A program made the position numbers and the translations under genes. 32,000 nt of DNA, taken from Telmatocola sphagniphila (GTDB taxonomy: Bacteria; Planctomycetota; Planctomycetia; Gemmatales; Gemmataceae). The stretch's first letter is position 1, and every line of letters begins with the position of its first letter. This document shows positions 6,954-25,982 of this stretch, piece by piece. The notes beneath the pieces were generated by a model. That model was not told the origin of the DNA and did no database searches. It worked only from the letters and a program-made list of their open reading frames with translations. Where the stretch lies: the NCBI RefSeq assembly GCF_018398935.1, contig NZ_CP074694.1, forward strand, positions 570,001 through 602,000, read 5' to 3'.

Positions 6954-9900
6954 ATGAGTTTCTCCATTCGGTCGTGCCTGGCCATCTTCTGCGCATTTTG
7001 TCTGGTTTCCGAGAGTTACGCCCAACGAGAATACGGTTTCGATAACACCAAGTCGACAGGCCAACCCTATCTCAAACCTCAGGAGTCGCTTTCCCGAATG
7101 AAGGTGGCCGACGGCTTTGAAGTGAAGCTCTTTGCCGCCGAGCCGGATGTGATCAATCCCATTGCCATGACGGTGGATGAGAGAGGCCGGATCTGGGTGA
7201 TCGAGTGCTACGAATACCCCAAGCGCACGGCCAAAGGGAAGATGCCGCGCGATCGGATCAAGATCCTCGAATCGACCAAAGGGGACGGCGTCTGCGATAA
7301 AGTAACAATCTTTGCCGAAGGGAAAGACTTTCCGGTGCCCTTCGATCTCGCCAGCGGTATCGAAGTAGGTAATGGCGGGGTTTACGTTGGAGCGCCGCCG
7401 TATCTGTTTTTCATCGAAAACAAAAATGACAAGCCGGGCAAATTCGAAATCCTGTTGAAAGGATTCGGCAGCCAGGACACGCACGAAACTTTGAATACTT
7501 TTCAGTGGGGGCCGGATGGCTGGCTCTATGGTCTGCAGGGAGTTTTTACTCACTCGGATGTGAAGCCTGGCCAGGCGGACGGTGTGGCCACCCGCTTGAA
7601 TGCGGGCATCTGGCGCTACCATCCGACCACGAAGAAATTCGAAATTTTTGCGGAAGGAACCAGTAACCCCTGGGGAATGGACTATCGCAACAGCGATGGC
7701 CAGTTCATTCTGTGCTGTTGCGTCATTCCCCACCTGTTTCACATTACCGAAGGCGGCAGTTTCAAGCGACAGGCCGGGGCGAGTTTTAATCCCAACGTCT
7801 ATTCCTACATCCCGGAAATCTGCGATCACATTTTTCACAAGGAAAGCGGTTGGGCGCATGCCGGGCTGGTGTCGCTGGATACGCCCTTGATGCCGGAGAA
7901 ATATCGCAACAGCGTGATATTCGGCAGCATTCACGGCTCTTCGCTGAAGCAAAATATCCTGGCGCCGAACGGGGCCACCTTTAAAGCGACTCGAGGAGAT
8001 GATTTTCTGGTCAGTGGCGACAAGAACTTCCGGCCAATCAATCTCCGTTGGGGTCCAAATGGAGAAATTTATTGCATCGACTGGCACGACCAGAACCCCT
8101 GCCATCAGGCGGCTGCGGATGCCTGGGATTACGAACGTGGTCGGATCTTTTCGATTCAGACCAAGGGATTGAAAACGCAAGTCGCGGAGGATCTCGGAAA
8201 ATGGGATCTGACAAAACTTACTAACGAATTAATTCGAGCTGATAATCCTTATCGATGGCGGACGGCGTTGCGAATGCTTTATGAGAAGAGGCGGAGCTCC
8301 GCTAAGCCGGACGACAAGGAGATTGATCAACTAGTACAGGATTTGCTCAAAAAACTGAGTGAGGAATCCGAATTGCCTTCAACTAAATTACGCATGTTGT
8401 TTGGGTTGGAAGCACTTCGTCATGGGGATCTGTTAGAAGCAGTCAAGATCCCCGCGCTTCAGCACAACGAGTTACTCAAGAGTTGGTTGATTCGGTTGAT
8501 CGGAACCCGAAGTGATCAGAACATTAATTCAGATAAGGTTCAACCGTTAACTTCGAATTTGAAAGACCCCAATGTTCGATTGCAACTGGCAATTCTTGCT
8601 CGCAAAAGTCACGATATCAATTTACTGCATCAACTTTTGGAAACGAGTTCCGATCCGAACCAGATCGCGGAAAATCAACAACTTTGGTTGGCAATAAATC
8701 AGGAACTCGAGGATCCCGAAGCAAGAAGGCAGATTTTGAGTTGGTTACAGGAATTTAGTAGGAAAGCTTCATCGAATTCAGGTTTTTTATTGTCTCAAAC
8801 TATTCGTAAGTTTGCATCATCAGGTAAACCGAATGATGTAGATGCAGCTATCCGGATTATTGAAACAGTAGCGAGTCAAAATCTGGGCGCGAAGGTTAAC
8901 TCCAATCTTTATAAACAGCTCCTGGAAAGTTTGATTGCTGGCTTGCCCGAGAAAAGCCAGAGTACCCCGACAGCTTGGAGGAGCACGCGTTTCTATTTGT
9001 TGTCGGAGGATAATAAAGATCTCCAGAAGCTGATTTTCAAGCTGGATCTCTTATTTAAGGATCCGGAAATCTTAAATAAAGCAAGAAAAATCGCCCGCGA
9101 CACGTCTGCCTCCGAGTCAGATCGGATCGATGCCATCAAAGGAATGGCCTCGGATACTTCGGAGAATACGAGAATAGAGCTCGAACTTCTGATTATGGCC
9201 AGTAATCCCACGAAAATTCGCGTTGCGGCCGTGCAAGCTTTAGGGAGTATTAAAGATCTAGAAAAATCGCTAGCTATCTTGAATCTTTGGGCAGACTATC
9301 CCAAGGAAGTCCGAAGCGAACTACTTCAACTATTCAGCTCGCGAAAGCCACTCGCAAAAGCACTCCTTCAGGCCGTGGAAAAGAAAAAGATCCTTCCCAC
9401 CGATCTCAACGACAACCTGATCTTAAAAATGCAGGCCTTCAAGGATAAGGAGATAGACACGATGATCTCCAAATCCTGGGGCAAAATTCGTTCGACCCCA
9501 GCCGAGCTCAATGCCGTCATCGAAAAGATGCGCGGCGAGTTGAACAGCGGCGGCGGCGATTTTGCCAAAGGCCGGCTGGTATTCGAAAATCATTGCTCCA
9601 AGTGCCACGTTTTTGAAGGAAAAGGGCGTCAGGTGGGCCCATTACTCGAGGGAGCGGACCGCGGGATAGAGTATCTGCTGGTTAACGTGCTCGATCCCAA
9701 CCGGGTGGTGGGGGCTCCGTATTACATGCGGACTATCAACTTCCAGGATGGCAAAGTCGAAACGGGAATTCTGGAAAGCGAAGACGACAAAAATATCTCG
9801 CTGAAGGGCGAGAATGGCGTCATCAAGAAGTTTTCAAAAGCGGATATCGAAGAGATCAAGGTTTCCGAAAAATCGCTGATGCCTGAAGGCTTAGGCTACA

Positions 9901-10331
9901 ACATGACGCCGCAGGATTTTCGCAATCTGGTCCGATATGTGATGCGTGATCCCTATGTGGGAAAAGTGTCTCTCCAACTGCCGCAGCACAAGGAGAATGA
10001 ATCCCTTTCCGTGGATGTTCCGGTAACCGGGCGGATAACTCTCCCGGAAGCCATAACGAAACAACTGGTCACCGTCCGAGCCTCGGTCGATTCGCCTGCA
10101 GCCCTGAAAACCACGCTACTGTTGGGAGTGGGGCACGATGCCCACGTTCGCCTGAATGGTCGGGCGACTCGCTTTGTGGGTAACAAATCAACGGTGCGGC
10201 CCGATGCGTTGCGCTGGGAGGTGGAGCTGAAGCAGGGAGCGAATGAATTGACGGTTACCTTCGAGTACGAAGGAAAGCAGGAGGAGGTCTACATTCGATT
10301 TCTGGATCCGGAGCGAAAATTGACAAAGTGA
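6954..10331 (+). CDS. PVC-type heme-binding CxxCH protein with an N-terminal membrane-bound-dehydrogenase-like domain and central HEAT-like repeats
   Basis: The 1125-aa ORF has an N-terminal signal peptide (MSFSIRSCLAIFCAFCLVSESYA). It also has DGFEVKLFAAEPDVINPIAMTVDERGRIWVIE, typical of the planctomycete/verrucomicrobial dehydrogenase-like domain. A single cytochrome c motif, CSKCH, lies at nt 9594-9608, with SLMPEGL downstream. Confidence 0.8.
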   Translation: MSFSIRSCLAIFCAFCLVSESYAQREYGFDNTKSTGQPYLKPQESLSRMKVADGFEVKLFAAEPDVINPIAMTVDERGRIWVIECYEYPKRTAKGKMPRDRIKILESTKGDGVCDKVTIFAEGKDFPVPFDLASGIEVGNGGVYVGAPPYLFFIENKNDKPGKFEILLKGFGSQDTHETLNTFQWGPDGWLYGLQGVFTHSDVKPGQADGVATRLNAGIWRYHPTTKKFEIFAEGTSNPWGMDYRNSDGQFILCCCVIPHLFHITEGGSFKRQAGASFNPNVYSYIPEICDHIFHKESGWAHAGLVSLDTPLMPEKYRNSVIFGSIHGSSLKQNILAPNGATFKATRGDDFLVSGDKNFRPINLRWGPNGEIYCIDWHDQNPCHQAAADAWDYERGRIFSIQTKGLKTQVAEDLGKWDLTKLTNELIRADNPYRWRTALRMLYEKRRSSAKPDDKEIDQLVQDLLKKLSEESELPSTKLRMLFGLEALRHGDLLEAVKIPALQHNELLKSWLIRLIGTRSDQNINSDKVQPLTSNLKDPNVRLQLAILARKSHDINLLHQLLETSSDPNQIAENQQLWLAINQELEDPEARRQILSWLQEFSRKASSNSGFLLSQTIRKFASSGKPNDVDAAIRIIETVASQNLGAKVNSNLYKQLLESLIAGLPEKSQSTPTAWRSTRFYLLSEDNKDLQKLIFKLDLLFKDPEILNKARKIARDTSASESDRIDAIKGMASDTSENTRIELELLIMASNPTKIRVAAVQALGSIKDLEKSLAILNLWADYPKEVRSELLQLFSSRKPLAKALLQAVEKKKILPTDLNDNLILKMQAFKDKEIDTMISKSWGKIRSTPAELNAVIEKMRGELNSGGGDFAKGRLVFENHCSKCHVFEGKGRQVGPLLEGADRGIEYLLVNVLDPNRVVGAPYYMRTINFQDGKVETGILESEDDKNISLKGENGVIKKFSKADIEEIKVSEKSLMPEGLGYNMTPQDFRNLVRYVMRDPYVGKVSLQLPQHKENESLSVDVPVTGRITLPEAITKQLVTVRASVDSPAALKTTLLLGVGHDAHVRLNGRATRFVGNKSTVRPDALRWEVELKQGANELTVTFEYEGKQEEVYIRFLDPERKLTK

Positions 10332-11134: not shown

Positions 11135-11887
11135 TCACGCTTCAATTTTGGAGCCGTGAAAGAATTCGGGCGGTCGAACCAGATCGAGGAGAATCGCTTC
11201 ATTTTCGCCGAAGTATAATGCGATTTTCTGCTGTTTGGCGAGTTCCAGCAATGCCAGAAAGAAGCCGATCAAACGCATTTTGGTGCGGGGCGTTTCAAAG
11301 ATCGATTCGAATGAAATCGGCGCCTGTCGATTCAGTCTGGTCAGGATACTATCCTCAAAAAAAGCTTGCGGCATCTCGTCGACGATAGTCTGAGATTCAT
11401 TTTTTTCCTCCCACTCGCGAATGAGCTTCCCGAACGAGTTCAGGAGATCCCAGATCTCCACTTTTTGAAGTGAGGTGGACGCTTCCAGGGATTCTTCCTC
11501 GGGGATCGCCTGGCGGGCGAGTTTTTTGCTTTGCTGCGAGGAAATAATTTCCAGGAGGCTCGCTGCTTTCTTGATGCGACGATATTCGATGAGTTGCTGA
11601 ACCAGAGAGTGCTTTTCCTCCTCGATCGGGCTATCTTCCGTCGATTCGCCGCGCGGCAGCAGTTGCCGACTTTTAATTTCCATCAGGGTGGCGGCAACGA
11701 CCAGAAAGTCTCCCGCCAGTTCGAAATCGAGCCATTTGAGTATGCGGATATGCTCGAAGAATTGATTGGCGATCCCGGCGATCGAGACCTCCCGCAGATC
11801 GATCTCATTCCGCTTCACCAGGTGAAGCAGCAGGTCGAACGGTCCGGTGAAGGTCTGGAGCCGAATTTGAAAATCCGTCGAGTCCAT
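11135..11887 (-). CDS. scpA: Segregation and condensation protein A (SMC-complex kleisin)
   Basis: The 250-aa ORF has the typical ScpA N-terminus, FTGPFDLLLHLVKRNEIDLREVSIAGIANQF. Its ATG lies 18 nt after the stop of the upstream kinase-tubulin-like gene. Confidence 0.8.
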   Translation of the reverse strand: MDSTDFQIRLQTFTGPFDLLLHLVKRNEIDLREVSIAGIANQFFEHIRILKWLDFELAGDFLVVAATLMEIKSRQLLPRGESTEDSPIEEEKHSLVQQLIEYRRIKKAASLLEIISSQQSKKLARQAIPEEESLEASTSLQKVEIWDLLNSFGKLIREWEEKNESQTIVDEMPQAFFEDSILTRLNRQAPISFESIFETPRTKMRLIGFFLALLELAKQQKIALYFGENEAILLDLVRPPEFFHGSKIEA

Positions 11888-11905: not shown

Positions 11906-14900
11906 TCATTCGTGAACGTACTCTGCGGAGGATTCGATATCCTCCCACTGCAGAACGTCAAACCGGCAATGCGGATTGGTGCCCATGTGCAGGGAGTTCA
12001 AATAGGCATCCTCCGCAAATGGTCCCGCCTGCGGCAGATAGCGGATAGGTATGCCCGAATATTCCCGGTAGACGTATACCTCGTCTCGCGAAGTCGCGTA
12101 AGCGAAATTCGCCGTCGGAAGTTTGATTTCCCCTTGATCCAGCAGGGCACTCTGAAGTGACTCCGGCATCCCGACGATGCAGACTTCCTGGCCGGTGCAT
12201 ACGGTCACCCGATATTCCGGTTCGGCCTGGAAGAAAAGTTCCTGAAGCGATTCCGATAACGATCCGAAATCCGGAAACTTCTGAGCGTAAATATCCGAGA
12301 AGTCGACCTGGTTCAGCTTCATCAAAATGAACTGACGTGCTTGTTCCTCGACGATTTCCTGTAAAGAAGTCTCCAGCTGCTTATTCTTCTTGGCCGAATC
12401 GACGGCGAGATTGAACTGCTTTTCGATCTTCAACTGCATCTTCTGATCGACTTCCCTCATGTCCTCCGGACTCAACATATCCTTGAAGATATCTATGGCA
12501 TCCTGAAGGGAACCCGCACCAAAGGGCAGCAGCAGCGATCGCGTTTCCGGCAACGTCCCGACGGCATTCTGACGCATCTGACGCAGCAGATCCATCAATT
12601 GCTTGCGGCTGTAGCAAAGTTCCTGATGCTGGGTCAGCAGGCTGCGTTCCGCGCATCGGTAAATTTGAATCATGCTTTGACAGTACATGTACTGCAACCA
12701 ACTGCGAACGTACGTATTCAATGCATCCATCAGCGTCGACGAACGGGTTTTCGTCTGCTCGGAAGTGCTGACGACATTCAGGAAGCGCAGCGCCTGGTTA
12801 GCCCGGGCAAATTGATCGTTCTTCGTTTCGTCCAGCTTGCCACAAATCTGGTTCAGAGTCTGGTGCATCATCTCATTGGCGACGATCGCTCCCGCGAGGC
12901 GGAAATCATATTCGTCCGTCATGCTGGAGGAGATTCCCACGACTTTAGGGGTGAGATCTTTCACCAATAGATCGGTGCGATATTGAATCGCTTTTTCGGT
13001 CTTGGAAAGGCTTGTGGAAACTTGCTTGTCTTCCGGGTTTCCGAAGGCCGAGCGGATTCGAGAAACGACTTCCCAAACCGTCATGGGGTCGGGATCGCGG
13101 GAGAACCAGCCCTTGCTTTGCAGTACGCTGGTTTCCTCTTCCAAAAACTGGCTGATCTGTTTGCCGAGAAGCTTGACAATTTCCGCTTCCAGAACCGCGG
13201 ACAGGTTATCCACGGAAAGCTCGAATTCCGACCAGCGCTGCGAGATTCTCGAGCGTACTTTATCTTCCAATATTCCCGAATCGTTGGAGATCCAGCGGGC
13301 GATGACCGTCTGAGCCAGCCAATCGGACAAATGCTGATGGACCAGTTTGCGAGGCCAGTTGTGGGAAGCTTTTTCGAGCGTCGTGAAGCAGGTGTCGGTG
13401 TTCGTCGTGTCGGTTGTTCGCTGCCGTTGGCGATCGAGATGACGGCCGAAGGGCGAGAACGCATCGTTCATCAAAAGATCGACAATCGATTCCGTACCGG
13501 TCACTTTCAGATCGAGAGAATCGTTCGAATTGCCAGAGATGGAGTTTCCATAGGGGAAACAGTAAAAGCGATCGTAGGGGCTGTGAGTCGGCTTGACGAC
13601 GGAATCGCGTTCGTCGAAGATCGCCGAATAGTTTTCCGGTTTTTGCGTGTAGTGATGCAGTTCCCGAAGGCTGGCATAGCTGTTGGACAGCGCGGTGCCA
13701 TCCAGTTTTTCCCGATCGACGTTCGGAACCTGGAATAAGCCCACGACTTCGGAATCCGGCAGACCCATTTTTTTCAGCTTGTGCTTCACGGCATAGGCAG
13801 CATCGATGAACATGCCACTACCGGTGCCACCGCCCAGACCGGTGGCGATGTAGATTCGCGGCCGATTCGTGCGCAGGCCTAACTGAGTGTGCTTGGCAGC
13901 CTTGGCGAGCGCATCCGGATGGATCGCCTTCAGGATGAAATTCTCAATTTTATCGACGATTGAGCGGTAATGATCGATGAAGGCTACGCGACCAAAGGCC
14001 CGGATCCCCAGCGTTCGAGGCTGACGCGGCAATTTGTAAAGTAATTGCGGATCGAACCAGCCTTCAATAATCGTGCGGCCGTGGCGTCTCGGTTTGAGAT
14101 AGTAGCTGGAACGGTGCAGTTTGGCGTGGATAATCTCCTCTTTGCGGAGATATGGGTAATAGCCTTCGTCTCGGATTTGCTCCATCAGATTCGGATCGGT
14201 GTCCAGAAAGAGCATACGAATATTGGGCAAATTATTCGGAAGGCCATATTCCGAAATCATCTGCTTGCGGAACTCTTTCATGATCTTGAGGCCCGTGCCT
14301 CCCAGGCCGATCATGATGATCGGTCGAATGCAACCATCGCCGGTGATCTCAGGAATGACGATGGGGGACCGGATCATCGAATTGACTTGATCGCCGAAAT
14401 GATCGGTATTGCGAAGATTCGACGCCGGGAAAGGAGTTTCGGAGGTACCCCGCGCGAGTTCACCGAATTTGCAGGATTCTTCTACCTTTTCCTCGGACAG
14501 CAACGCGTGCGGCACAAATTCAACCGGTTCGCCGCGAATGTTCGACAGAGCCTGGATCAGTTCCTTGCAACTGTTGAACCGATTTTCGGGTATTTTTGAG
14601 AGCGCTCGGCCAATGATGGCCCGCTCGTTTGACGGCAACGCGGACAAATTGGGGATGCCGTGCGTATGCATCAGCACCAGCTGCTGAGGATTGACGCCTT
14701 CGAAAGGGCGCGTACCCGTCAGTAATTCCTGGTAAACAATTGCGAGACTGTACTGGTCGCAATACGGGGTGACCATGCCGCGAAGTGTTTCCGGCGCGGC
14801 ATAGACGGGAGTGACGCCACCCGTCACGGCCGATTGCAAACCCTCGAGTTCTTTGACTAACCCGAAGTCGGCCACCTTAACGTGGTTGTGCAGAAGAAAG

Positions 14901-15364
14901 AGGTTTTGCGGCTTTACGTCCAAATGCTGCAACTGATGATTCACATACATCAGGTCCAGAACCTCGGCGGCCTCCGCGAGGTAATTCAACAACTCTTTTC
15001 GCGGGATGCCGGGTTGCTGTTTACCCCGGTACAGTCGATAGTGCTCCCAGAGGTTGCAGTCGGCCAGTTCCATGACGATGAACAGCCGGTTTTCGATAAT
15101 GTCGTAGCGTTCGAGCGAGAGCAGGTAAGGGTGGCGAATCGACTGGATACGTCGAAGCGCTTTCAGTTCCTGCTCGGCATGCCGCAGACTGTTTTGGTCT
15201 TCGAAAGCCGAGGTAGCGATGAGGTTGCCATAAATGATCTTTATGGCTTTATGCAAACCGCCAGGCGCTTCCGCTTTCCAGACTTCGCCGAAACCACCGC
15301 TACCAATGCGCTGGATCAAGCGATAACCGGGTATGGGTTCCGCGTTTTGCTCAATCCTAAGCAT
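11906..15364 (-). CDS. Ser/Thr protein kinase fused to a tubulin/FtsZ-like GTPase domain (paralogue A)
   Basis: The ORF is 1152 aa. The kinase domain (about nt 14540-15325) has GSGGFGEVW, AIKII, HLDVKPQN, DFG and YAAPE. The tubulin-like module (about nt 13565-14329) has IIMIGLGGTG (14291-14308), LFLDTD and IYIATGLGGGTGSGMFID, with GGGTGSG at 13814-13834. This matches the tubulin signature [SAG]GGTG[SA]G. The remaining 550 aa or so have no motif I recognise. Confidence 0.85.
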   Translation of the reverse strand: MLRIEQNAEPIPGYRLIQRIGSGGFGEVWKAEAPGGLHKAIKIIYGNLIATSAFEDQNSLRHAEQELKALRRIQSIRHPYLLSLERYDIIENRLFIVMELADCNLWEHYRLYRGKQQPGIPRKELLNYLAEAAEVLDLMYVNHQLQHLDVKPQNLFLLHNHVKVADFGLVKELEGLQSAVTGGVTPVYAAPETLRGMVTPYCDQYSLAIVYQELLTGTRPFEGVNPQQLVLMHTHGIPNLSALPSNERAIIGRALSKIPENRFNSCKELIQALSNIRGEPVEFVPHALLSEEKVEESCKFGELARGTSETPFPASNLRNTDHFGDQVNSMIRSPIVIPEITGDGCIRPIIMIGLGGTGLKIMKEFRKQMISEYGLPNNLPNIRMLFLDTDPNLMEQIRDEGYYPYLRKEEIIHAKLHRSSYYLKPRRHGRTIIEGWFDPQLLYKLPRQPRTLGIRAFGRVAFIDHYRSIVDKIENFILKAIHPDALAKAAKHTQLGLRTNRPRIYIATGLGGGTGSGMFIDAAYAVKHKLKKMGLPDSEVVGLFQVPNVDREKLDGTALSNSYASLRELHHYTQKPENYSAIFDERDSVVKPTHSPYDRFYCFPYGNSISGNSNDSLDLKVTGTESIVDLLMNDAFSPFGRHLDRQRQRTTDTTNTDTCFTTLEKASHNWPRKLVHQHLSDWLAQTVIARWISNDSGILEDKVRSRISQRWSEFELSVDNLSAVLEAEIVKLLGKQISQFLEEETSVLQSKGWFSRDPDPMTVWEVVSRIRSAFGNPEDKQVSTSLSKTEKAIQYRTDLLVKDLTPKVVGISSSMTDEYDFRLAGAIVANEMMHQTLNQICGKLDETKNDQFARANQALRFLNVVSTSEQTKTRSSTLMDALNTYVRSWLQYMYCQSMIQIYRCAERSLLTQHQELCYSRKQLMDLLRQMRQNAVGTLPETRSLLLPFGAGSLQDAIDIFKDMLSPEDMREVDQKMQLKIEKQFNLAVDSAKKNKQLETSLQEIVEEQARQFILMKLNQVDFSDIYAQKFPDFGSLSESLQELFFQAEPEYRVTVCTGQEVCIVGMPESLQSALLDQGEIKLPTANFAYATSRDEVYVYREYSGIPIRYLPQAGPFAEDAYLNSLHMGTNPHCRFDVLQWEDIESSAEYVHE

Positions 15365-15425
15365 ACGACACCAGGGGGATTAATATGGTCACGTAAACTT
15401 TCACCGGGGGACAAACAAATTTAGA

Positions 15426-18400
15426 CTATGAAAGCGATTCTGCAAATAATTCGGGCGAGCTACCTTCGCCGTTTCTAGGATCGTCAAAACCCTTAAACCA
15501 GGCAAAGTCCGTGCGACTGAACAAAAATTTATCCTGGGGCAGTATTCGAGAAGGATTATTTTCCCAGTATCCAAAATAAAGCCGGCCCGCCGCGAATTTT
15601 TGTTCGCAGGAAAGAACGATATCGTGTTCCGACGGATAATCAGTCCAATGAACTTCCGAAATCACATCGGCTAACAGGGCCTGAAAATTCGCTTTCGAGG
15701 GGGAGTTCGGTAAGCCCAGGAAGTGCATGGTGGTGCCTTCGGGTAATCTTCCGGTCAACATTGTCTGCGAGAGCTCGTCGAAAGCCCTCTGAATTTCCCG
15801 GTGGAGCAGTTGGGGATCGCGGCCCTCGCTCAGGAACATTTCCACGGAAGAGCTGACCGGCAGGCGCGTTTCGGCCAGGGCGAGCAGTTCTTCGCGAATC
15901 AGTTTCAGGAAGCGATCCTTGTATTGCATTTTCTGCAGGCAGACCTTTACCAGCGCGGAGCATTCCCGGCGGATGCGAACCTGCAAACGCTCATCGAGAG
16001 CGTCCCAATCGTTCTCAGAGATGGATTGGATAACGGAATCGGAGGCTTCCTCGATTTCCTTCGATTTACCCGGCAGGATGTGCAATTCCAGAAATTGTCT
16101 GGTTTCAGGCGGTTTAGAGGCTTTCCGGATCTCTTCCAGCATCTCGCGAGATTGCTCTTTGCAGAAGTTGATGTCTCGGGTGAATTCCGGCAGAATCCCT
16201 TTCCAGCTTTGCAGTACGCACTGAAGGGCATACTCTCTCTGGCTTTCCAGTCGAGTATTTACATAGGTGGAAATCAGCTCGCGAAGTTCCGAACGCGGGT
16301 CGCTGCGGCGTACGCTCAACTTGGGCCCGATGTTATCCAGATTGCCGATAAAATTCAGCATGCGATCGTAGCGGCTCTCCAGCTCGGAAGCGTTTTTGTG
16401 CAGTAACTGCTTGATTTGTTCGATCGTTTCGGTGAGTTCCTGATCGATTCGCTTGAGGAATTTCAAGGAAAACCCAAATCGCTTCGAAGGCATTTCGACC
16501 AGTTGAACGACCATTTCCGACAATCGCTTCTCGGTTTCTTTGGCCAGTTCCTTGAAACATTCCGCAAAGGCACGCTTGCTGGGATGGTCGTCGCCCGAAC
16601 CGGGGGAGCCCACGATTTGAACCAGAGGTTCAATCAGGTTGCAGCATTCGATTTGACTGATTTGTCCGCGTCCTTCGCCGATCGCCTTTTCCGTCTCAAT
16701 CAATTTGTCGAAGATCGAGTATCCCAGTCGGACAGTCAGTTTTTCATCGAGTTGTTTGCGCAGCGAATCGTTATCGAGCCGCTTTTTCTGCAGAAATTCT
16801 TTGGTGAATTGAATCACTTCGGTGCTGTCGGAGCTGGATTCGGTTTCGATCCAGCGATTCTGCAATTGCAGCGTCAGCCGGCCGAGGGAATCCTGAAGTA
16901 ATCTCTGACGGGGCCAAGTCAGCCGGACCGAGGCGACATTGCGGTAAGGATTCGGCACGTCGCGCTTGCGCAGCTCGCCTTCAAACCGGGATTTCCCGAG
17001 GTTGGTAAAACCTTCCTGAATGAGAGTTTCGGAGAGTACTTCGAGGTGTCGAGTCGTCGCACTCTTCACTCCGGTTTTTTCCACCGGATGGAGAGTGATC
17101 GAATCGAACGGCCGCTCGCTGTCGGTAAAAGGCTCTTCCTTCAGCGAATATACCGCCCGGAAAGTCTCTTTGCCGGACATGAAAGTGTCGATTTCCCTCA
17201 GTGCAATCAACGGTTTTTCGAGTTGCAAAGAGTTTTCGTTGGACCAGAGCGAACGCGGCAGGAAGAAGTGGGCCGACACGCGATTCGGGTCGTAACCGAC
17301 CTTCCGCAGCTCCTGCTTCAGCATATACGCCAGATCGAGGGCAATCCCGCTACCGGTTCCCCCCATCAGCGAGCCGACGATGTAAACCCGCGGGAATGTA
17401 CTTCGCAGTCCCAGGCCTTTCGCGCCGGAGATATCGCCGCCTTCGGTATCCCGCATCACCTTTTTCAGCATGCGGCCGAATTTCAACTTCACGGCTGCCT
17501 GATGATCGAGAAGACTCAGTCGGCCCAGAGCCCGGACGCCCATGGTCCCGCCATCGCGGGGAATCTTGTAAAGCAATTCGGGATCGTGCCATTGCTCGAC
17601 AGGCGGAAGTAGAGTCTGCTTAAGGTAGTGGGCCGGGCGATGCAGGCTTAAATGCAGCGTTTCTTCCTTGGAAAGCTGAGTATCCGAGCGATAGGAAGAA
17701 CTGGCATCGATCTCCTGAGAATCGGTGTCGAGAAGCAGATATTGAACGTTTGGCAGCTTCTCGTCCGGGAATTTCTCGCCCAGTTGCTTCTTGATCTGTC
17801 GAATCGAAGCCGCACCGTAACCCCCAATGCCGATGATCAGCATCGGGAACAGAATCCCTTTATCTCTTTTCTCGCTCAACGCCCGCAATTGACCCAGGTT
17901 CTGTGAAGAGGGGGGTAGCGAGGGAGAAGGAGGGGATAGGCTCTGCGAATCCTCCGGTTTGCGTTGTACCGGCGTTTTGAGCTTGGGAACCAGCCGCAAG
18001 GTTTGAGAACGGATCGGCTGCAAGGTCAAAGCAGAAGCGGTCGAGGGAGGTGGTTCCAGTTCGCCCGGCTTGGAGGAGTCGCGTGTTGGAGTGTCGCCGC
18101 TGGGAACCAGGGAGATTTTCGGGGCAACCTCGGGAAGCGAATTTCGCTTGGCCGACTTTAAAGCGCGTACCAGGTCCCGACAAGTGGGATAGCGATCATC
18201 CGGTGTTTTCGAGAGGGCCCTCAGAATGATGGGTCTCTCTTCTTCCGAAAGGCTACTGACGTTGGGAACGGCCGACAAATGCTGCATCATGAGATTGCGA
18301 ACATTCGTTCCACTGAAAGGCCTTTCACCGGTCAATAATTCTTGATAAACAATCGCCATGCTGTACTGGTCGCAAAAGCGGCTGACCCAGCCTTCGAACG

Positions 18401-18968
18401 TTTCCGGAGCGGCGTACAATGGCGTGACGCCGCCGGTCATGGTCGCGCGAATTCCCTGGAGGTCCTTGGCCAAGCCGAAATCGGCCACCTTGATGTGATT
18501 ATAAACCAGAAACAGGTTTTGCGGTTTAATGTCGAGATGCTGCAGTTGGTACTGCTCGTTCATCAAATCGAGAGCCTCGGCCGTTTCCTCCATGTAGGCA
18601 ATGAGTTCATCCCGGGGAATCCCCCGTAACTCCTGTTTGCGGCATTCCTGATAGCGATCCCAGAGATTGCGATCGGCCAACTCCATCACGATCAGCAACT
18701 GACCTTCGACGATATCGAATCGTTCCAGAGAAAGTACGAACGGATGCCGGATGGTCTTGACGCGGTTGAGCGCTTTTAATTCCTGCTCGGCCGACTTATC
18801 CTCGGAACAGGCATTTTCTATGTCCCCATAAACGAATTTAATTGCCTTGAGAATTCCACCGGGGGCCTCGCATTTCCAAACTTCCCCGTATCCGCCTCGG
18901 CCAATTCGCTCAATGAGGCGGTATCCCGGAATAGGTTCGCCGGCATTTATGCTGGGTGAAGCCGCCAT
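15426..18968 (-). CDS. Ser/Thr protein kinase fused to a tubulin/FtsZ-like GTPase domain (paralogue B)
   Basis: The ORF is 1180 aa and collinear with paralogue A. The kinase domain (about nt 18159-18926) has GRGGYGEVW, AIKFV, HLDIKPQN, DFG and YAAPE. A Pro/Ser-rich linker follows (about nt 17853-18158). The tubulin-like module has LIIGIGGYG (17814-17831), LLLDTD and VYIVGSLMGGTGSGIALD, with GGTGSG at 17346-17363. Confidence 0.85.
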   Translation of the reverse strand: MAASPSINAGEPIPGYRLIERIGRGGYGEVWKCEAPGGILKAIKFVYGDIENACSEDKSAEQELKALNRVKTIRHPFVLSLERFDIVEGQLLIVMELADRNLWDRYQECRKQELRGIPRDELIAYMEETAEALDLMNEQYQLQHLDIKPQNLFLVYNHIKVADFGLAKDLQGIRATMTGGVTPLYAAPETFEGWVSRFCDQYSMAIVYQELLTGERPFSGTNVRNLMMQHLSAVPNVSSLSEEERPIILRALSKTPDDRYPTCRDLVRALKSAKRNSLPEVAPKISLVPSGDTPTRDSSKPGELEPPPSTASALTLQPIRSQTLRLVPKLKTPVQRKPEDSQSLSPPSPSLPPSSQNLGQLRALSEKRDKGILFPMLIIGIGGYGAASIRQIKKQLGEKFPDEKLPNVQYLLLDTDSQEIDASSSYRSDTQLSKEETLHLSLHRPAHYLKQTLLPPVEQWHDPELLYKIPRDGGTMGVRALGRLSLLDHQAAVKLKFGRMLKKVMRDTEGGDISGAKGLGLRSTFPRVYIVGSLMGGTGSGIALDLAYMLKQELRKVGYDPNRVSAHFFLPRSLWSNENSLQLEKPLIALREIDTFMSGKETFRAVYSLKEEPFTDSERPFDSITLHPVEKTGVKSATTRHLEVLSETLIQEGFTNLGKSRFEGELRKRDVPNPYRNVASVRLTWPRQRLLQDSLGRLTLQLQNRWIETESSSDSTEVIQFTKEFLQKKRLDNDSLRKQLDEKLTVRLGYSIFDKLIETEKAIGEGRGQISQIECCNLIEPLVQIVGSPGSGDDHPSKRAFAECFKELAKETEKRLSEMVVQLVEMPSKRFGFSLKFLKRIDQELTETIEQIKQLLHKNASELESRYDRMLNFIGNLDNIGPKLSVRRSDPRSELRELISTYVNTRLESQREYALQCVLQSWKGILPEFTRDINFCKEQSREMLEEIRKASKPPETRQFLELHILPGKSKEIEEASDSVIQSISENDWDALDERLQVRIRRECSALVKVCLQKMQYKDRFLKLIREELLALAETRLPVSSSVEMFLSEGRDPQLLHREIQRAFDELSQTMLTGRLPEGTTMHFLGLPNSPSKANFQALLADVISEVHWTDYPSEHDIVLSCEQKFAAGRLYFGYWENNPSRILPQDKFLFSRTDFAWFKGFDDPRNGEGSSPELFAESLS

Positions 18969-19514
18969 TTCTAATGATCCCTGAACGTACAGCCATCCAG
19001 GAACGCGGGCTGCGACTATCCCGGATGATTCCTAAATATAGATCACGAATTATAATCGGGACTGAACGAGCAGTAGAAATCCGCTAAAAGGGAGTTTACT
19101 CCGGAGATAATTTTGGCTTTATAAAAATGCCGGTCCCATCTCCTTCGCTCTGCCCTGGGGCGCAAATTTCATCCCAGATCAAAACGGTCAGGTTATCTGA
19201 GTGGTCATCGGGGATACTTGGTAGAACTTTGGATCCTAGATTTCTCGAGGCGACCCCGGAGAAAGAATAAGAGGTCGGATTCACACGATAGCCTTGCCAC
19301 GCTATCCCTTTCACATGGACATTTTGGGAACACTTCGCTTAGGGTGATTGTCCGTAACAACATCCTCGCTCGCTGCGAAGGCCGTTTGAAAAGCATTCTG
19401 TTCAATCCGGTTTTAAACGACGCGGAAGGATGGTTTTGTTTTCCAGACTCCGAAATTCCTTTCGTTTCACCGATATAAAAAGAATGGGAGTTTCTTCGAA
19501 GTCCGAGACGATTC

Positions 19515-20204
19515 ATGAAGCCGAAAACGATCCAACTGCTGGTCAGCGTGCAAAATGCTGAAGAAGCCGCACTGGTTATGGACTTGGGGGTCGATTGCAT
19601 CGATATTAAAAATCCAAGCGTGGGTTCGTTGGGGCGACCTACTTTCGAAGTCGTGGACGAGGTGGTTAATCTCGTTGCCGATAAGGTGCCCTTAAGCGCC
19701 GCACTGGGAGAGTTCTCCGAAGAACACGATACTCTGGATGTTCGGTTACTGAAATTGCCACTGCGTTATTTGAAGTGGGGCTTGAGCAAACTCGGCTGGC
19801 CAATGCCTTTTGTCAATCACGTTCGCGAGGTGAACGGCTTTGGGCGGATGATCGGGGCCGCATACGCGGATGCTAAAATCTGCGATGCTCCCTCCTTGCC
19901 TAAAGTCGCCTGTCTGGCCAGCCGGTTGAATGCCCCGGTGTTCCTGATCGATACTTTTCAGAAGGATGGTCGATCGCTTTTCGCCCATGTATCTGTGGCG
20001 GAGATCGAACACCTTCGCGAAATGGCTTTCTGGGGAGATATGGAACTGGCCTTGGCCGGCTCCGTGAAGTGGGAAGAACTGCCCGAGATCAAACGAATTC
20101 GTCCCAATTGGCTGGCCGTGCGAGGATTAGTCTGCCAGGAGGGGGATCGCAGAAAGCCAATTGACCCGGAACGGGTAAAACGCTTGAAGCAACTTCTCAA
20201 TTGA
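19515..20204 (+). CDS. mfnB: (5-formylfuran-3-yl)methyl phosphate synthase-like protein (MfnB/DUF556 family, methanofuran biosynthesis)
   Basis: The 229-aa ORF has LLVSVQNAEEA...GVDCIDIKNPSVGSLG, YLKWGL, AAYADA, LIDTFQKDGRSLF, ALAGSVKWEELP and VRGLVCQEGDR. This parallels the archaeal MfnB layout as I recall it, including the D.KNP Schiff-base lysine context. Confidence 0.7.
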   Translation: MKPKTIQLLVSVQNAEEAALVMDLGVDCIDIKNPSVGSLGRPTFEVVDEVVNLVADKVPLSAALGEFSEEHDTLDVRLLKLPLRYLKWGLSKLGWPMPFVNHVREVNGFGRMIGAAYADAKICDAPSLPKVACLASRLNAPVFLIDTFQKDGRSLFAHVSVAEIEHLREMAFWGDMELALAGSVKWEELPEIKRIRPNWLAVRGLVCQEGDRRKPIDPERVKRLKQLLN

Positions 20205-20207
20205 TGC

Positions 20208-20858
20208 CTAGGACTTCTGATAGCCTGCAAGCTGCATCCAGCCTCGAAAATTCAGACACTCCAGCGATAAGGTCGTTTCCGCCGCGATTGTGGGGAAATG
20301 CCCATCGACATAGCCTTCCCGGGCTGCTTTTAGCCAGTTTCCGTCGAATGGGAAGTCCCGAGATTTCAGAAGTACCACTCGGGAAGCACCCAGTTGCCCA
20401 CCAGCCCGCACGGCTATGCTATCGGTCGTGACCGACCAGGATTTGGGAAGGGCCCCGGTGTTTTTCTCATCCCATTCCAGAAAACGGTGACCATCCAGAA
20501 CCAGGATTCGTTCCTGGGGAAGCGACGGCTCAAATTCTTCGAGTAAAGGTTTGCCTGGCAGGATCTGAGCCAGCATCCGAGCGGAAATTCCCAAGGCCCG
20601 CACGGCCAGCCAGTGGGAATCGACATCGTTCAGATGGTGAAGCGGCTGATATTTTCTTAAGGCTTCCACAAAATCGCCGCCGCCCGCCAGCAACAGAATT
20701 TGGCCCTCTGACTGTTGCGCTAACCAGTGTTCGATTGCAATTCCCAGAGTGGGGAGATCGAACAGGCTGCCGCCCACTTTGACAAGCAACAAACTCACCG
20801 AGATTAACTCCCTTAGTGTTTGAAGTGCACGAGCAGTTGAGTGATTGCCCAGGCGCAA
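20208..20858 (-). CDS. Amino acid kinase (aspartate/glutamate/uridylate kinase) family protein, possibly MfnE-like
   Basis: It has the N-terminal LLLVKVGGSLFD motif typical of the amino acid kinase fold, and it sits in the cofactor cluster. The track start overlaps the upstream gene by 46 nt. An in-frame GTG at 20798 (VSLLLVKVGGS) lies just after that gene's TAA and a GGGAG, and is a likely true start. Confidence 0.6.
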   Translation of the reverse strand: MRLGNHSTARALQTLRELISVSLLLVKVGGSLFDLPTLGIAIEHWLAQQSEGQILLLAGGGDFVEALRKYQPLHHLNDVDSHWLAVRALGISARMLAQILPGKPLLEEFEPSLPQERILVLDGHRFLEWDEKNTGALPKSWSVTTDSIAVRAGGQLGASRVVLLKSRDFPFDGNWLKAAREGYVDGHFPTIAAETTLSLECLNFRGWMQLAGYQKS

Positions 20859-21814
20859 GCGGCCGAGGAAAGCTCTTGATCCAAAAGTTGCGATAAAGAA
20901 ACGAAATCAGTCTGGGGCAGACGCTGATTAAATTCGGAATGCCGGGCCAATTCGCGGATCAGAAATTCACCCGACCCGGAGAGGATCGTCCGTGTAAAGC
21001 CGGCTTTATGTCGAGCCAGAACTTTCTCAATTCCCTGCAGAATCCCTTCGGCCTGTAATTGGTAAAACCGCTGAGCCGTGGCAGCGATTTTTTTGTCGGA
21101 GATTGTCGATAAATCCCCACCGAGTGTATGAGCAATTCTAGACTTGGCCTCCCTCTTCGTGGCCGGTTGTCCATCGGCGGTGTTGAAGTTGTCCGGATCC
21201 TCCTCGATATGTTCCAGGACGAGATGCAGATCGAGGGTGGTGGCGAAAACTTCCCGGCAGATACCTTGGCCATCCAGCATCGGAAGCGGAGTTCGGCCTA
21301 CACCGATATAGACTAATTCGTCGGATTGAAGTCGCTCAAAATCGGTTTTACCCCGGCTGGCTGGTTTACCTTTGAGGATAGGAATAATATCGGTGGTGGT
21401 GGAACCGATATCGATCAGCAAGCTGCGATCGTCGGAATAGATCAGTCCGCAATAACTGGCCAGGGCGTGCCAATTGGAGGAGGCCGTTTTCAAATAGTCG
21501 ATACGGGCACTTTCGATCGTCTGAAAACCCTGGTCCACCTGCCAGATTTGCAATTCCTCTTCGGGAAATATTTTTAATACTTCATCGAGTATGCGATTAA
21601 CGCCTTCCTGTTTGGTCGAATAGCAGTCGCAGGATTCGCCGGTCATGCAGATGCCGACCAGATCGTATTTGGGCATCTGCCTGGCAGCTTTTTTTAGCAG
21701 TTTGTGCAACTTTTTGGGGGACTTCCAGAGTGCGAAAGGCAAGGTGAAAGCTCTGCCTTTACTGTGGGCGATTTTTATGTTCGCCCCCCCAATATCCAGA
21801 CCGAGATAGTTCAT
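20813..21814 (-). CDS. Hydantoinase/ASKHA-fold protein of the H4MPT-linked C1-transfer pathway family (possibly MfnF-like)
   Basis: The 333-aa ORF has the N-terminal ASKHA phosphate-1 motif MNYLGLDIGGANIKIAH and a second motif, LLIDIGSTTTDIIP. It is adjacent to mfnB. The family link to H4MPT/methanofuran genes is recalled, not searched. Confidence 0.6.
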   Translation of the reverse strand: MNYLGLDIGGANIKIAHSKGRAFTLPFALWKSPKKLHKLLKKAARQMPKYDLVGICMTGESCDCYSTKQEGVNRILDEVLKIFPEEELQIWQVDQGFQTIESARIDYLKTASSNWHALASYCGLIYSDDRSLLIDIGSTTTDIIPILKGKPASRGKTDFERLQSDELVYIGVGRTPLPMLDGQGICREVFATTLDLHLVLEHIEEDPDNFNTADGQPATKREAKSRIAHTLGGDLSTISDKKIAATAQRFYQLQAEGILQGIEKVLARHKAGFTRTILSGSGEFLIRELARHSEFNQRLPQTDFVSLSQLLDQELSSAACAWAITQLLVHFKH

Positions 21815-24824: not shown

Positions 24825-25982
24825 ATGAATCACTTTTTCTCCCTCGCATTTCTTTTTGTGCTACCCGCGTTTGCGTTTGAAGGACAGGATAAAACCCAAA
24901 GTGAAATAGAGGCCTTGGTTCAGAAGTTGGGTTCGAAGGCGTTTCGAGAACGGGAAAAATCGCAGCAAGAACTATTAGTGCTTAAAGAAGAATCCATTCC
25001 CCATCTCCGAAAGTTAGCCTCTCAGGCGACAGAGCCCGAAGTAAAAGGGCGGTTGAACCAGATTATTGAGACCCTTATCGGGAACTTTGCCAAGGAAACT
25101 CAGAAGTTTTCCGTGGAAGAAAAATCCCCTATTTACTCCATAGCCCTTTCGCCCGATGCGAAGTCCCTCTTTGCCGTTTATGGCAATAAATTGATACGTC
25201 GCTGGGATGTTGACAAGCAAAAGAGCACTGAGCTGAAATGCGATTTTGATCTTAGTTCGGTCCGTTGCTCACCAGACGGAAAATTTATCGCGGTAGCAGG
25301 TATCGCTAACTCAATTCTGATCTACGATTCCGCTGAACTGAAAAAGATCGGAGAAATTAAGTGCCCGAACGCTGAAGTTTTCGAAGCAGTCTGGTCGCCG
25401 AACAGTAAAAATCTGGTTTCGGTAGGCGGAGACAAATTTGCTCGACTGTGGGATTTGGAATCCGGAAAGTGCATCAAGGAACTTGAACTTGCCCGCTATA
25501 CATCCTCAGTTTGCTTCTCGCCGGACGGTAAGAAAATTGCCGCCGGTTCCGCGGTGGGAGATGTCTCCATCTGGGATGCCGAAAGTGGCGGCGAACTTTT
25601 GAGAATCCAAAAACATCCCCGATTGGTGAAGTCGATGCAATTTTCACCCGACGGGAAGCAACTTGTGACCGCTTGTTTTGATGGGACTGTGAGGCTCTTT
25701 GATGCCAATTCCGGCAAGCCAATAGCGAGTTTCGAAAGCCATTTCGGGAAGTTGTTTTCTGTTCGTTTTTCGCCCTCGGGTGACAAAATTGCCTGTGCGG
25801 GAAGTGATGGCTCGATAGGCCTATGGGAAATCGAATCTCACAAACCATTGCACACTTATACTGGTCACAAAGAACAGGTAATGGAGTTGCGTTTCAAACC
25901 CGACGGGAAAACCATCCTATCCGGAAGTTTTGATGGAACTCTCCGTTTCTGGCATGTTCCGATTACCTCCGAATCGCACTGA
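24825..25982 (+). CDS. Secreted WD40 repeat (beta-propeller) protein
   Basis: The signal peptide is MNHFFSLAFLFVLPAFAFEG. Seven repeats of the SPDGK...(W/F)D type follow: RRWDV, LIYDS, RLWDL, SIWDA, RLFDA, GLWEI and RFWHV. Confidence 0.85.
   Translation: MNHFFSLAFLFVLPAFAFEGQDKTQSEIEALVQKLGSKAFREREKSQQELLVLKEESIPHLRKLASQATEPEVKGRLNQIIETLIGNFAKETQKFSVEEKSPIYSIALSPDAKSLFAVYGNKLIRRWDVDKQKSTELKCDFDLSSVRCSPDGKFIAVAGIANSILIYDSAELKKIGEIKCPNAEVFEAVWSPNSKNLVSVGGDKFARLWDLESGKCIKELELARYTSSVCFSPDGKKIAAGSAVGDVSIWDAESGGELLRIQKHPRLVKSMQFSPDGKQLVTACFDGTVRLFDANSGKPIASFESHFGKLFSVRFSPSGDKIACAGSDGSIGLWEIESHKPLHTYTGHKEQVMELRFKPDGKTILSGSFDGTLRFWHVPITSESH

Follow-up and report, generated by a model that had tools for sequence, protein, structure and literature searches.

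Two adjacent genes of the planctomycete Telmatocola sphagniphila (Gemmataceae) each encode a protein that couples a Ser/Thr kinase to a tubulin-like module, which raises the question of what such a pair is and what it does in the cell. We analysed a window of 32,000 nucleotides around them. Since both genes lie on the minus strand, B (15426..18968; 1180 aa, RefSeq WP_213497714.1) is the upstream and A (11906..15364; 1152 aa, RefSeq WP_213497713.1) the downstream member. B was identified by its ORF, Pfam matches and an exact database match, and A by its ORF, Pfam matches and a 100% match to P0001. Two collinear paralogous ORFs of these lengths, 61 nt apart, had been predicted from the sequence; the ORF calls and BLASTP (32% identity over ~1,000 residues, E 4e-170) agree, with the strand now corrected to minus. 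The spacer between B and A (15365..15425, minus strand) holds no convincing terminator, and the terminator scan found 9 compared to 12 expected in shuffled sequence, i.e. not above expectation. The syntenic scpA gene, coding for the SMC kleisin (11135..11887; Pfam SMC_ScpA, E 7e-30), follows A on the same strand after 18 nt. Because the spacings are 61 and 18 nt and no convincing terminator separates B from A, the three genes are probably co-transcribed. The presumed promoter region of this unit is the 546-nt divergent intergenic region (18969..19514) that, on the ORF map, separates B from the 4-HFC-P synthase gene.

Both proteins begin with a Hanks-type Ser/Thr kinase of the non-RD (HLD) type, encoded on the minus strand at 14525..15325 for A (residues 14-280; Pfam Pkinase, E 4e-33) and 18123..18923 for B (residues 16-282; E about 1.4e-34). 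Each carries the G-loop, AIK, HLD.KPQN, DFG and APE. None of the catalytic residues K42, E66, H-L-D149, K151 and N154, nor DFG or APE, varies in any of three clades of the family, A-like (n = 36), B-like (n = 27) and single-copy (n = 24), and all the corresponding residues of the B kinase are kept in 27/27 B-like orthologues. Non-RD kinases are usually regulated otherwise than by activation-loop phosphorylation. The kinase is followed by a linker with no Pfam match, at residues 281-343 of A (14336..14524, minus strand) and residues 283-372 of B (17853..18122, minus strand). The B linker is rich in Ser, Thr and Pro (39% S+T+P) and is a candidate autophosphorylation region.

We next consider the second module. 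A carries the motifs IIMIGLGGTG, FLDTD and IYIATGLGGGTGSG, and B carries LIIGIGGYG, LLDTD and VYIVGSLMGGTGSG; every motif string quoted in the original prediction, for the kinases, Gly loops, TD and GGTG motifs alike, was found again. Pfam PF13809 (Tubulin_2; cut-off 27 bits) matches A at residues 350-688 (E 1.8e-44, 152.9 bits) and B at residues 377-660 (E 7e-34, 118 bits), and PF00091 reaches 32.2 bits in A and 21.3 bits in B, both under its gathering score of 33 bits. Judged by sequence, this agreement of motifs and Pfam matches in A and B is far beyond chance. The domain in A, delimited by an AF2 model, Foldseek and conservation, spans residues 344-671 (13352..14335, minus strand) and comprises, in order, S1-T1 (G353-G358), T2 (D388-T-D390), a T3-like T451-x-G-x-R-x-x-G-R459, a family-specific helical insert, S4-T4 (G512-G517) and a conserved block G640-R-x-x-D644-x-x-R647. 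In B it spans residues 373-700 (16869..17852, minus strand), as placed by Pfam and by T1 GIGGYG, T2 LDTD and T4 GGTGSG. Conservation of the Gly loop and GGTGSG among orthologues, on which the prediction depended, was borne out: G355, G358, D388-T-D390 and G512-G-T-G-[S/G]-G517 (A numbering) are near-invariant across 121 family members, and the T1, T2, T3-like and T4 loops are invariant in the same three clades. The domain is thus predicted to bind GTP via its conserved T1-T4 loops.

A and B belong to FtsZl1, in its kinase-fused planctomycete branch. PF13809 is the FtsZl1 family that Makarova & Koonin described by computation in 2010, with planctomycete "Ser/Thr kinase" members from Gemmata (two copies), Pirellula, Rhodopirellula and Blastopirellula in the supplementary list (PMC2875224), and a 2023 paper mentions the N-terminal kinase fusion (PMC9871819). 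Since RefSeq also names both A and B "tubulin-like domain-containing protein", the system cannot be called undescribed, as had been supposed. In the literature searched we found no biochemical work on any FtsZl1 protein. To our knowledge, three points are new within that literature: that Gemmataceae keep A and B as a tandem duplicate, that a housekeeping synteny block surrounds the pair, and that a structural model confirms the assignment. A and B share with the family the PF13809 score, the T1-T4 loops, family-specific inserts that separate T1 from T4, an extended helical C-terminus replacing FtsZ_C/Tubulin_C and the association with a Ser/Thr kinase. However, the kinase is fused in A and B and operonic in the usual FtsZl1 systems, where separate Ser/Thr kinases are often encoded (PMC2875224), and the usual partners (a vWA protein, a P-loop GTPase and an OmpA-like protein) are absent beside the pair.

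The fold supports this assignment. An AF2 model of A residues 335-1152 (pLDDT 91.7, pTM 0.83) gave 84 Foldseek matches to the PDB at E <= 1e-3, and the 50 listed are all CetZ, tubulin, gamma-tubulin or FtsZ; top matches are to CetZ1/2, tubulins and FtsZ (E down to 3.8e-6, probability 1.0, about 350 aligned columns). In the viral library, phage FtsZ and tubulin alone match at E <= 1e-3. Together with PF13809 and the invariant kinase residues, these matches, among those listed to the tubulin superfamily alone, support the proposal that the central modules are tubulin/FtsZ-superfamily domains fused to kinases. A and B have in common with FtsZ, CetZ and tubulin (PF00091) the N-terminal GTPase fold, the GGGTG[SG]G T4 signature, a Gly-rich T1 and the (N/D)TD T2 loop, but identity is 11-16% and target-normalised TM only 0.4-0.5. 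They differ further in a ~60-residue helical insert before S4, in the added kinase and tail, and in having no recognisable C-terminal activation domain: neither FtsZ_C nor Tubulin_C was found in A or B by Pfam, or in the tail by structure search. The T7 loop was not mappable by sequence, as a profile search of PDB sequences aligned S2-T2 and S4-T4-H4 only (E about 1-2), and hhalign against E. coli FtsZ aligned S1-T2 only, with 22% probability. A conserved helix-loop-helix block, G640-R-x-x-[D/E]644-x-x-R647, lies where H7-T7-H8 would be and is a candidate T7-like element. Because neither a T7 loop nor an FtsZ/tubulin C-terminal domain was identified, we treat hydrolysis of GTP, and longitudinal assembly in the manner of tubulin, as putative.

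The C-terminal tail of A consists in AF2 models of a family-specific, all-helical stalk or bundle (residues 672-1046; 12227..13351, minus strand) with helices up to 60 residues long, and a small alpha/beta cap (11909..12226, minus strand) of beta-alpha-beta-beta-alpha structure, in which the family alignment shows R1100, E1101, Y1121, H1132, R1134, D1136 and W1140 to be invariant. The C-terminal region of B (residues 701-1180; 15429..16868, minus strand) is homologous to both parts, by BLASTP to ~residue 1027 of B and by the family alignment. Modelled separately, the A tail (about 480-485 aa) again forms a long helical bundle (pLDDT 89.5), with no PDB fold match at E <= 1e-3. In these models the bundle is compatible with an oligomerisation stalk. 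No TM segment and no obvious amphipathic membrane anchor were found in A or B.

The best explanation, to which we give an even chance, is that A and B form a kinase scaffold that is gated by GTP, associates with itself and serves a housekeeping role. Each would be a soluble cytoplasmic protein made of an active non-RD kinase, a flexible linker, a divergent tubulin/FtsZ-fold domain, a ~375-residue helical stalk and the small cap. GTP binding by the tubulin-like domain would promote self-association into large homo- or hetero-oligomeric assemblies, assisted by the stalk. Clustering would bring the kinase domains close together for trans-autophosphorylation, the linker being a likely target, and the clustered kinases would then phosphorylate substrates. 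We infer oligomerisation and kinase activation by clustering; since GTP-driven clustering would bring the kinases together, the scaffold would be nucleotide-gated and assembly-coupled. Candidate processes that it might serve are membrane or envelope organisation, budding and nucleoid handling. Roco/LRRK2 offers an analogy, with a nucleotide-binding domain covalently tied to a Ser/Thr kinase and oligomerisation-dependent regulation. The domain there is a Ras-like Roc-COR rather than a tubulin/FtsZ fold and homology is limited to the kinase, so that the likeness is one of working and not of membership.

A homologue from another genus, not assigned to the A or B type, has been seen at the protein level. 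VTR99911.1 of Tuwongella immobilis (PF00069;PF13809, 133 kDa, no TM) turned up in the Triton-insoluble, SDS-soluble fraction alone, at a high LFQ intensity of about 1.2-1.3e9 (PMC8567305 Table S3). Since SDS-only solubility is common to many Tuwongella Ser/Thr kinases, this could mean envelope association and not self-assembly. Its presence in the non-Tris, non-Triton fraction would also suit the general FtsZl1 proposal of a membrane-remodelling machine (Makarova & Koonin 2010), here assembling on the cytoplasmic membrane and shaping the invaginations of Gemmataceae, whose membranes are described as heavily invaginated (PMC8567305). That proposal was drawn from operons with vWA, OmpA-like and membrane proteins and was questioned by reviewers of the 2010 paper (PMC2875224). 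We consider it highly doubtful for A and B, as vWA, GTPase and OmpA partners are absent from the window and the conserved block, and the proteins have neither TM segment nor obvious amphipathic anchor.

Descent further informs the role of the pair. A and B arose by an ancient duplication and are vertically inherited in Gemmataceae, which marks a core-genome function without mobile-defence character. In an NJ tree, A-like and B-like clades have sub-topologies that mirror each other across genera, sister lineages have one copy only, and about 60% of loci carry A and B in tandem. A recurrent block, HSP70/DUF3731-HydA-AAK-HFCP-B-A-ScpA-3kdh, is kept at ~37% protein identity, its HSP70/DUF3731 gene lying 3 kb from the pair. 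The divergent HFCP neighbour is kept in 14/19 B-like loci. Of all neighbours, an unrelated C1-metabolism gene is the most constant. ScpA adjacency was found in 5/28 A-like and 4/20 single-copy loci, with scpA at the same position in L001, L003, L004, L020, L024, L032, L041, L075 and L081. No clade-specific loss of a catalytic residue was seen between A-like and B-like proteins; the two clades differ by fixed residues at just five positions, of which four lie in the kinase. Because every kinase and GTP-loop residue is kept in both clades, there is no alpha/beta-type asymmetry. The suggested resemblance to alpha/beta-tubulin or BtubA/BtubB stands in part: tree and synteny show a real, old and conserved pair of adjacent, co-directional, paralogous tubulin-superfamily genes. 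The analogy itself is weak, since PF00091 scores under its cut-off, Tubulin_C/FtsZ_C are missing, both proteins keep all conserved residues including the candidate T7-like block, and single-copy lineages exist; A and B are not bona fide tubulins.

The original prediction put forward a kinase-coupled cytomotive filament as a candidate division or segregation system. These data also bear on whether A and B co-polymerise in a GTP-dependent, kinase-tuned manner into a cytomotive filament that drives budding, constriction or nucleoid segregation, possibly with SMC-ScpA. The absence of ftsZ from all planctomycetes, whose division machinery is unknown (PMC12673574), speaks for such a filament, as do the fold with its intact GTP loops, the vertically inherited paired paralogues of the core genome, scpA directly downstream of A here and in several distant relatives, the block at the expected H7-T7-H8 site and the abundant, detergent-insoluble Tuwongella homologue. 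However, most bacteria and archaea with FtsZl1 have FtsZ too, and the discoverers of the family considered it unlikely to act directly in division and were unsure whether it forms filaments (PMC2875224). With ScpA adjacency in a minority of loci, a C1-metabolism gene as the steadiest neighbour, the T7-like block only a candidate, no FtsZ/tubulin C-terminal domain found and no asymmetry between clades whose sister lineages are single-copy, we regard a filament as quite unlikely.

An NTP-dependent conflict or anti-phage component, akin to tubulin-containing GTPase-centric systems or kinase-based defence, is extremely improbable. Tubulin homologues with a C-terminal helical/coiled-coil extension occur in DO-GTPase/GAP1-N2 systems, some with kinases and HSP70 (Kaur et al. 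2020; PMC7159879), HSP70/DUF3731 belongs to the conserved block, and the PADLOC kinase models mad6 and PD-T4-6 match the kinase domain. However, the PADLOC and NCBIfam matches span the generic kinase domain only, with NCBIfam scores far under cut-offs, and those systems were reported from Firmicutes and Actinobacteria (PMC7159879). Annotation of the genes in the 32-kb window revealed no vWA, DO-GTPase, GAP1 or effector gene, and the locus has no FNIII. Its housekeeping synteny is conserved and descent is vertical across genera; tblastn against 50,697 phage records gave no match, and a plasmid search returned five distant megaplasmid FtsZl1 matches only.

The self-associating scaffold overlaps with a GTP-regulated kinase switch, from which oligomer size is the sole difference. 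In such a switch, analogous to Roco/LRRK2, kinase activity would be set by the tubulin-fold domain, serving as a nucleotide sensor within one chain or in a dimer, with no higher-order polymer, and the tail would bind partners or substrates. We consider this unlikely: all characterised tubulin/FtsZ-superfamily proteins have been argued to polymerise (PMC2875224), and large assemblies would fit better with the long helical stalk and with the Tuwongella homologue, found in the SDS fraction alone. On the other side, hundreds of orthologues couple an intact kinase covalently to the nucleotide-binding domain, the kinase is of the non-RD type and no T7 loop or C-terminal polymerisation domain was identified. 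In Pirellulales, FHA-domain genes adjoin the homologues, which points to phospho-signalling.

Genes B (15426-18968; 1180 aa; RefSeq WP_213497714.1) and A (11906-15364; 1152 aa; RefSeq WP_213497713.1) are ORFs on the minus strand, with A lying 61 nt downstream of B. The ORF map of the window agreed with the original prediction in the coordinates, lengths and motif strings of both. The pair is also co-directional as described; its strand, left implicit there, is minus, which places B upstream. The two are paralogous to each other (32% identity over ~1,000 residues, E 4e-170), and their RefSeq names already read "protein kinase" / "tubulin-like doman-containing protein". Both match the Pfam Pkinase model (E 4e-33 for A, 1e-34 for B), and the complete catalytic core of each, with G-loop, VAIK Lys, alphaC Glu, HxD...N, DFG and APE, predicts Hanks-type (eukaryotic-like) Ser/Thr protein kinases. 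An N-terminal kinase fusion is seen in A, in B and in almost every one of the 120 closest homologues. Elsewhere in the window, 788-2413 (minus strand) encodes another, stand-alone Hanks-type Ser/Thr kinase of 541 aa, matching the known kinase expansion in Planctomycetes.

We observed strong matches of the central modules to PF13809 ("Tubulin_2 / Tubulin like"), at A 350-688 (E 1.8e-44; 152.9 bits, model positions 1-355 of 356) and at B 377-660 (E 7e-34; 118 bits, model positions 1-298 of 356), the gathering cut-off being 27 bits. The Tubulin/FtsZ model PF00091 scored 32.2 bits for A and 21.3 bits for B, below its cut-off of 33. An AlphaFold2 (AF2) model of A 335-1152, built from a 97-sequence alignment, had a mean pLDDT of 91.7 and a pTM of 0.83. 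When this model was compared to the PDB using Foldseek, 84 matches were obtained at E <= 1e-3, the best being 4b46 (E 3.8e-6, probability 1.0). The 50 of these 84 that were listed are exclusively CetZ1/2, alpha-, beta- or gamma-tubulin and FtsZ, with no non-tubulin fold among them; about 350 columns align at 11-16% identity, with a target-normalised TM of 0.4-0.5. Among predicted viral structures, only phage FtsZ and tubulin were matched at E <= 1e-3. As modelled, the module has the Rossmann-like GTPase fold of the tubulin/FtsZ superfamily and is superimposable on FtsZ and tubulin, which bears out the tubulin-like character originally proposed.

The sequence link to FtsZ and tubulin is far weaker than this structural link. 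A single-sequence phmmer search of PDB sequences with the tubulin-like domain of A returned nothing relevant, and a 16-sequence family profile searched against PDB chains matched only FtsZ and CetZ at E ~1-2, covering just the S2-T2 and S4-T4-H4 segments of strands, helices and loops. An hhalign comparison with E. coli FtsZ aligned only S1-T2 at 22% probability and is too weak to map the T7 loop. Set against the structure matches, these weak sequence matches indicate that the fold assignment holds and that this is a very divergent branch, with no member of solved structure.

Loss of the Gly-loop or GGTGSG motif among orthologues had been fixed beforehand as grounds for rejecting the original prediction; both are conserved across 121 family members. 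In T1, G355 and G358 (A numbering, as below) are present in 121/121. In T4, G512 is likewise present in 121/121, followed by G513 in 119, T514 in 118, G515 in 118, Ser or Gly at position 516 in 120 and G517 in 119. D388-T-D390 in T2, the counterpart of the FtsZ NTD, is essentially invariant, as is a T3-like motif, T451-x-G-x-R-x-x-G-R459. The AF2 model also contains a family-specific insert, with helices at model positions 105-159 between S3 and S4.

Following the GTPase domain, the AF2 model shows ~375 residues that are all helix (model positions 338-712), with individual helices of up to 60 residues, and the tail closes with a small beta-alpha-beta-beta-alpha cap, several of whose residues are invariant. 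Modelled alone (A 668-1152, 485 residues), the tail reached a pLDDT of 89.5 and had no PDB match at E <= 1e-3, the best being alpha-pore-forming toxins (E 0.03, TM < 0.25). Matches of the tail to alpha-pore-forming toxins and dynamin stalks were rejected as generic long-helix similarity. A Pfam search of A and B found neither FtsZ_C nor Tubulin_C. The canonical C-terminal (activation) domain is missing and a long helical region stands in its place, as in the FtsZl1 family. In this the proteins match the first account of FtsZl1, whose authors could not identify the T6-H7 region or the C-terminal domain and left the question of filaments open (PMC2875224).

PF13809 is equivalent to FtsZl1 of Makarova and Koonin (2010; PMC2875224), and planctomycete proteins labelled Ser/Thr kinases already figure in the supplementary list of that study: Gemmata obscuriglobus contributes two, the others being Psta_0486, RB10367 and one Blastopirellula marina protein (PMC2875224). 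The system is in this respect not undescribed, as had been suggested. A and B have in common with FtsZl1 the above-threshold PF13809 match, the T1-T4 inserts, the long helical tail and the Ser/Thr kinase association. FtsZl1 genes occur in operons with vWA, divergent P-loop GTPase and/or OmpA-like proteins, whereas the A/B locus is without these; the planctomycete members listed in 2010 also lack such partners, and the Pirellulales members have FHA-domain neighbours (PMC2875224). FtsZl1 has further been counted among the "cell-division related" genes of Gemmata massiliana (PMC4672568). An exhaustive search with the tubulin-like domain of A returned 3,088 clusters (50% identity) at E <= 1e-3 and 230 at E <= 1e-30; in most of the closest 150 the domain is located at residues ~330-400 and the protein is ~1,100-1,300 residues long, as expected of the kinase-fused architecture. 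The best-supported assignment places A and B in the kinase-fused planctomycete branch of FtsZl1, a family catalogued since 2010, with the phyletic spread beyond Gemmatales resting on the 2010 supplement (PMC2875224). Our literature search turned up no experimental study of an FtsZl1 protein. The present analysis adds confirmation of the fold by a model, a conserved paralogue pair with its synteny, and a hint from the proteome of a related genus.

We built a neighbour-joining tree of the homologues at 79 reference-genome loci, nearly all of them from Gemmatales; it has three clades: B-like, A-like and single-copy-at-locus. Sub-topologies of the A-like and B-like clades mirror each other, with genera grouped alike in both, which indicates that a single ancient duplication preceded vertical descent. 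The B-then-A tandem is present in 16/27 A-like loci with enough flank, and A-like and B-like genes are unlinked in other genomes, for example at loci L011 and L057 of one MAG. In one reference locus (L024, 8933-16343), both tandem copies belong to the single-copy clade, which indicates an independent recent duplication. Two copies with three small ORFs between them are found in another (L080, 2971-11525), and a third, very divergent copy lies on the opposite strand in L043 (16451-20071, minus strand).

Kinase catalytic and GTP-loop residues are invariant within each clade: K42, E66, H147-L-D149, K151, N154, D166-F-G and P191-E192 of the kinase are shared by all three, and T1 and T4 are equally conserved in each. 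This conservation points to strong purifying selection on the GTP-binding and kinase residues of both paralogues. Fixed differences between A-like and B-like proteins are limited to five positions (81, 93, 135, 170 and 815), four of them in the kinase, and a candidate T7-like block, G640-R-x-x-D644-x-x-R647, is kept in both clades. A heterodimer of the alpha/beta-tubulin or BtubA/B type would be expected to keep the catalytic residue in one paralogue and to lose it in the other, while both clades here keep all conserved GTP-loop and candidate T7-like residues; bona fide tubulins also combine PF00091 with Tubulin_C, whereas A and B fall below the PF00091 cut-off and lack Tubulin_C. Because the residues are kept in both clades, nothing resembles the alpha/beta-tubulin division of labour. 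The likeness to alpha/beta-tubulin or BtubA/BtubB raised originally is thus not upheld, and an alpha/beta-type model is excluded by this analysis; an A:B heteromer is possible but not indicated. At position 644 of G-R-x-x-[D/E]-x-x-R, where 115/121 members have Asp or Glu, B of T. sphagniphila has Phe (B ~640-650, window ~17020-17050). Most other B-like orthologues keep Asp, so the Phe reflects either a deviation peculiar to this species or a shift in the local alignment.

The pair lies in a block with the order HSP70/DUF3731, hydantoinase_A-like, AA-kinase-like, 4-HFC-P synthase (divergent), B, A, ScpA and 3-keto-disaccharide hydrolase. Relatives with an A orthologue of only ~37% identity (L003, L004, L024 and L081) show the same block. 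A/B genes are core and vertically inherited, in a conserved housekeeping context outside any defence island. The scpA gene starts 18 nt after A; when adjacency to ScpA was counted over loci with sufficient flank, it held in 5/28 A-like and 4/20 single-copy loci, and we accordingly downgraded the linkage as evidence for a segregation role. The adjacency looks like an ancestral synteny that has often been lost, and argues only weakly for a shared function. A promoter and terminator scan was not above shuffled expectation and was uninformative.

A role in defence or conflict was considered since tubulin homologues and HSP70 have been linked in GTPase-centric systems (Kaur et al. 2020, PMC7159879). 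Those systems have an adjacent DO-GTPase and GAP1, FNIII/vWA and variable effectors (PMC7159879), none of which is in the window. No vWA, DO-GTPase, GAP1 or OmpA gene was found by Pfam in the 32 kb, nor any vWA, P-loop GTPase or OmpA-like gene in the relatives' block. A search of 50,697 phage records gave no homologue, and megaplasmids gave five matches only, all distant FtsZl1 genes. PADLOC/NCBIfam matches (mad6, PD-T4-6, PknB and others) were rejected as defence evidence as they reflect the generic kinase domain only, the NCBIfam matches of the A/B kinase being far below cut-offs, and HSP70/DUF3731 was rejected as a link for want of a DO-GTPase or GAP1. Together with the housekeeping synteny, these results do not fit a conflict system, and defence is less likely here.

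In Tuwongella immobilis, the PF00069;PF13809 protein VTR99911.1 (133 kDa, no TM helix) was recovered exclusively in the Triton-insoluble, SDS-soluble fraction, at an LFQ of ~1.2-1.3e9, like abundant housekeeping proteins (PMC8567305 Table S3). This shows that kinase-fused FtsZl1 proteins are expressed and that the Tuwongella homologue is abundant and detergent-insoluble in vivo. SDS-only fractionation is compatible with large assemblies or with tight envelope association, and gives the sole indirect hint of GTP-dependent polymerisation; many Tuwongella kinases, however, share this fractionation (PMC8567305). A and B contain no TM segments, and membrane remodelling by them is less likely here.

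All planctomycetes lack FtsZ according to a phylum-wide review from 2025, in which tubulin-like proteins are not brought up (PMC12673574). On the best-supported reading, A and B probably bind GTP through the tubulin-like domain. They would probably self-associate via this domain and the helical stalk, with self-assembly probably coupled to kinase activation, and such an assembly-coupled kinase is probably part of a housekeeping function in Gemmataceae. By analogy to Roco proteins, a non-polymerising, GTP-regulated kinase switch is a serious rival. To our knowledge, kinase-fused FtsZl1 proteins are the only tubulin-superfamily proteins that planctomycetes encode. The modelled fold, purifying selection, core vertical inheritance and abundant detergent-insoluble homologue place the candidate on firmer footing. 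A cytomotive division or segregation filament of A and B nevertheless seems unlikely, as expectations are tempered by the missing C-domain, the unverified T7 loop, the lack of alpha/beta-type asymmetry, the partial ScpA linkage and the wide occurrence of FtsZl1 in organisms having FtsZ. We similarly regard it as improbable that A and B together form a polymer that depends on GTP, is controlled by phosphorylation through its built-in kinase, and serves budding division without FtsZ and/or nucleoid segregation linked to SMC-ScpA in Gemmataceae. If true, an A/B polymer of this kind would supply part of the missing explanation for division in the only free-living bacteria without FtsZ. If nucleotide-dependent assemblies gate their own kinase, this would represent a regulatory design new to the tubulin superfamily.

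Other genes of the window were also noted. The HSP70-like gene with a C-terminal DUF3731 ("DnaK-related") domain (21873-24647, plus strand) is followed by a WD40 beta-propeller gene (24825-25982, plus strand); HSP70/DUF3731 is also in the A/B block of L003, L041 and L081, and three unrelated genes separate it from the pair. These occupy 19515-21814: 4-HFC-P synthase (MfnB-like, plus strand), the most stable B-like neighbour (14/19 loci), and amino-acid-kinase-like and hydantoinase_A-like genes (minus strand, 46-nt overlap). The cluster looks like a planctomycete H4MPT/methanofuran-type C1-transfer gene set. Pfam also identified ThiS and ThiG (thiazole synthase) fused in one ORF (29742-30767, plus strand). 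A 638-aa protein combines glucosamine-6-P isomerase / 6-phosphogluconolactonase and PIG-L (GlcNAc-PI de-N-acetylase) domains (27632-29548, minus strand). Finally, a 1125-aa protein (6954-10331, plus strand) has an N-terminal DUF7133 and a C-terminal cytochrome c motif region, a layout typical of large secreted or periplasmic proteins in planctomycetes.
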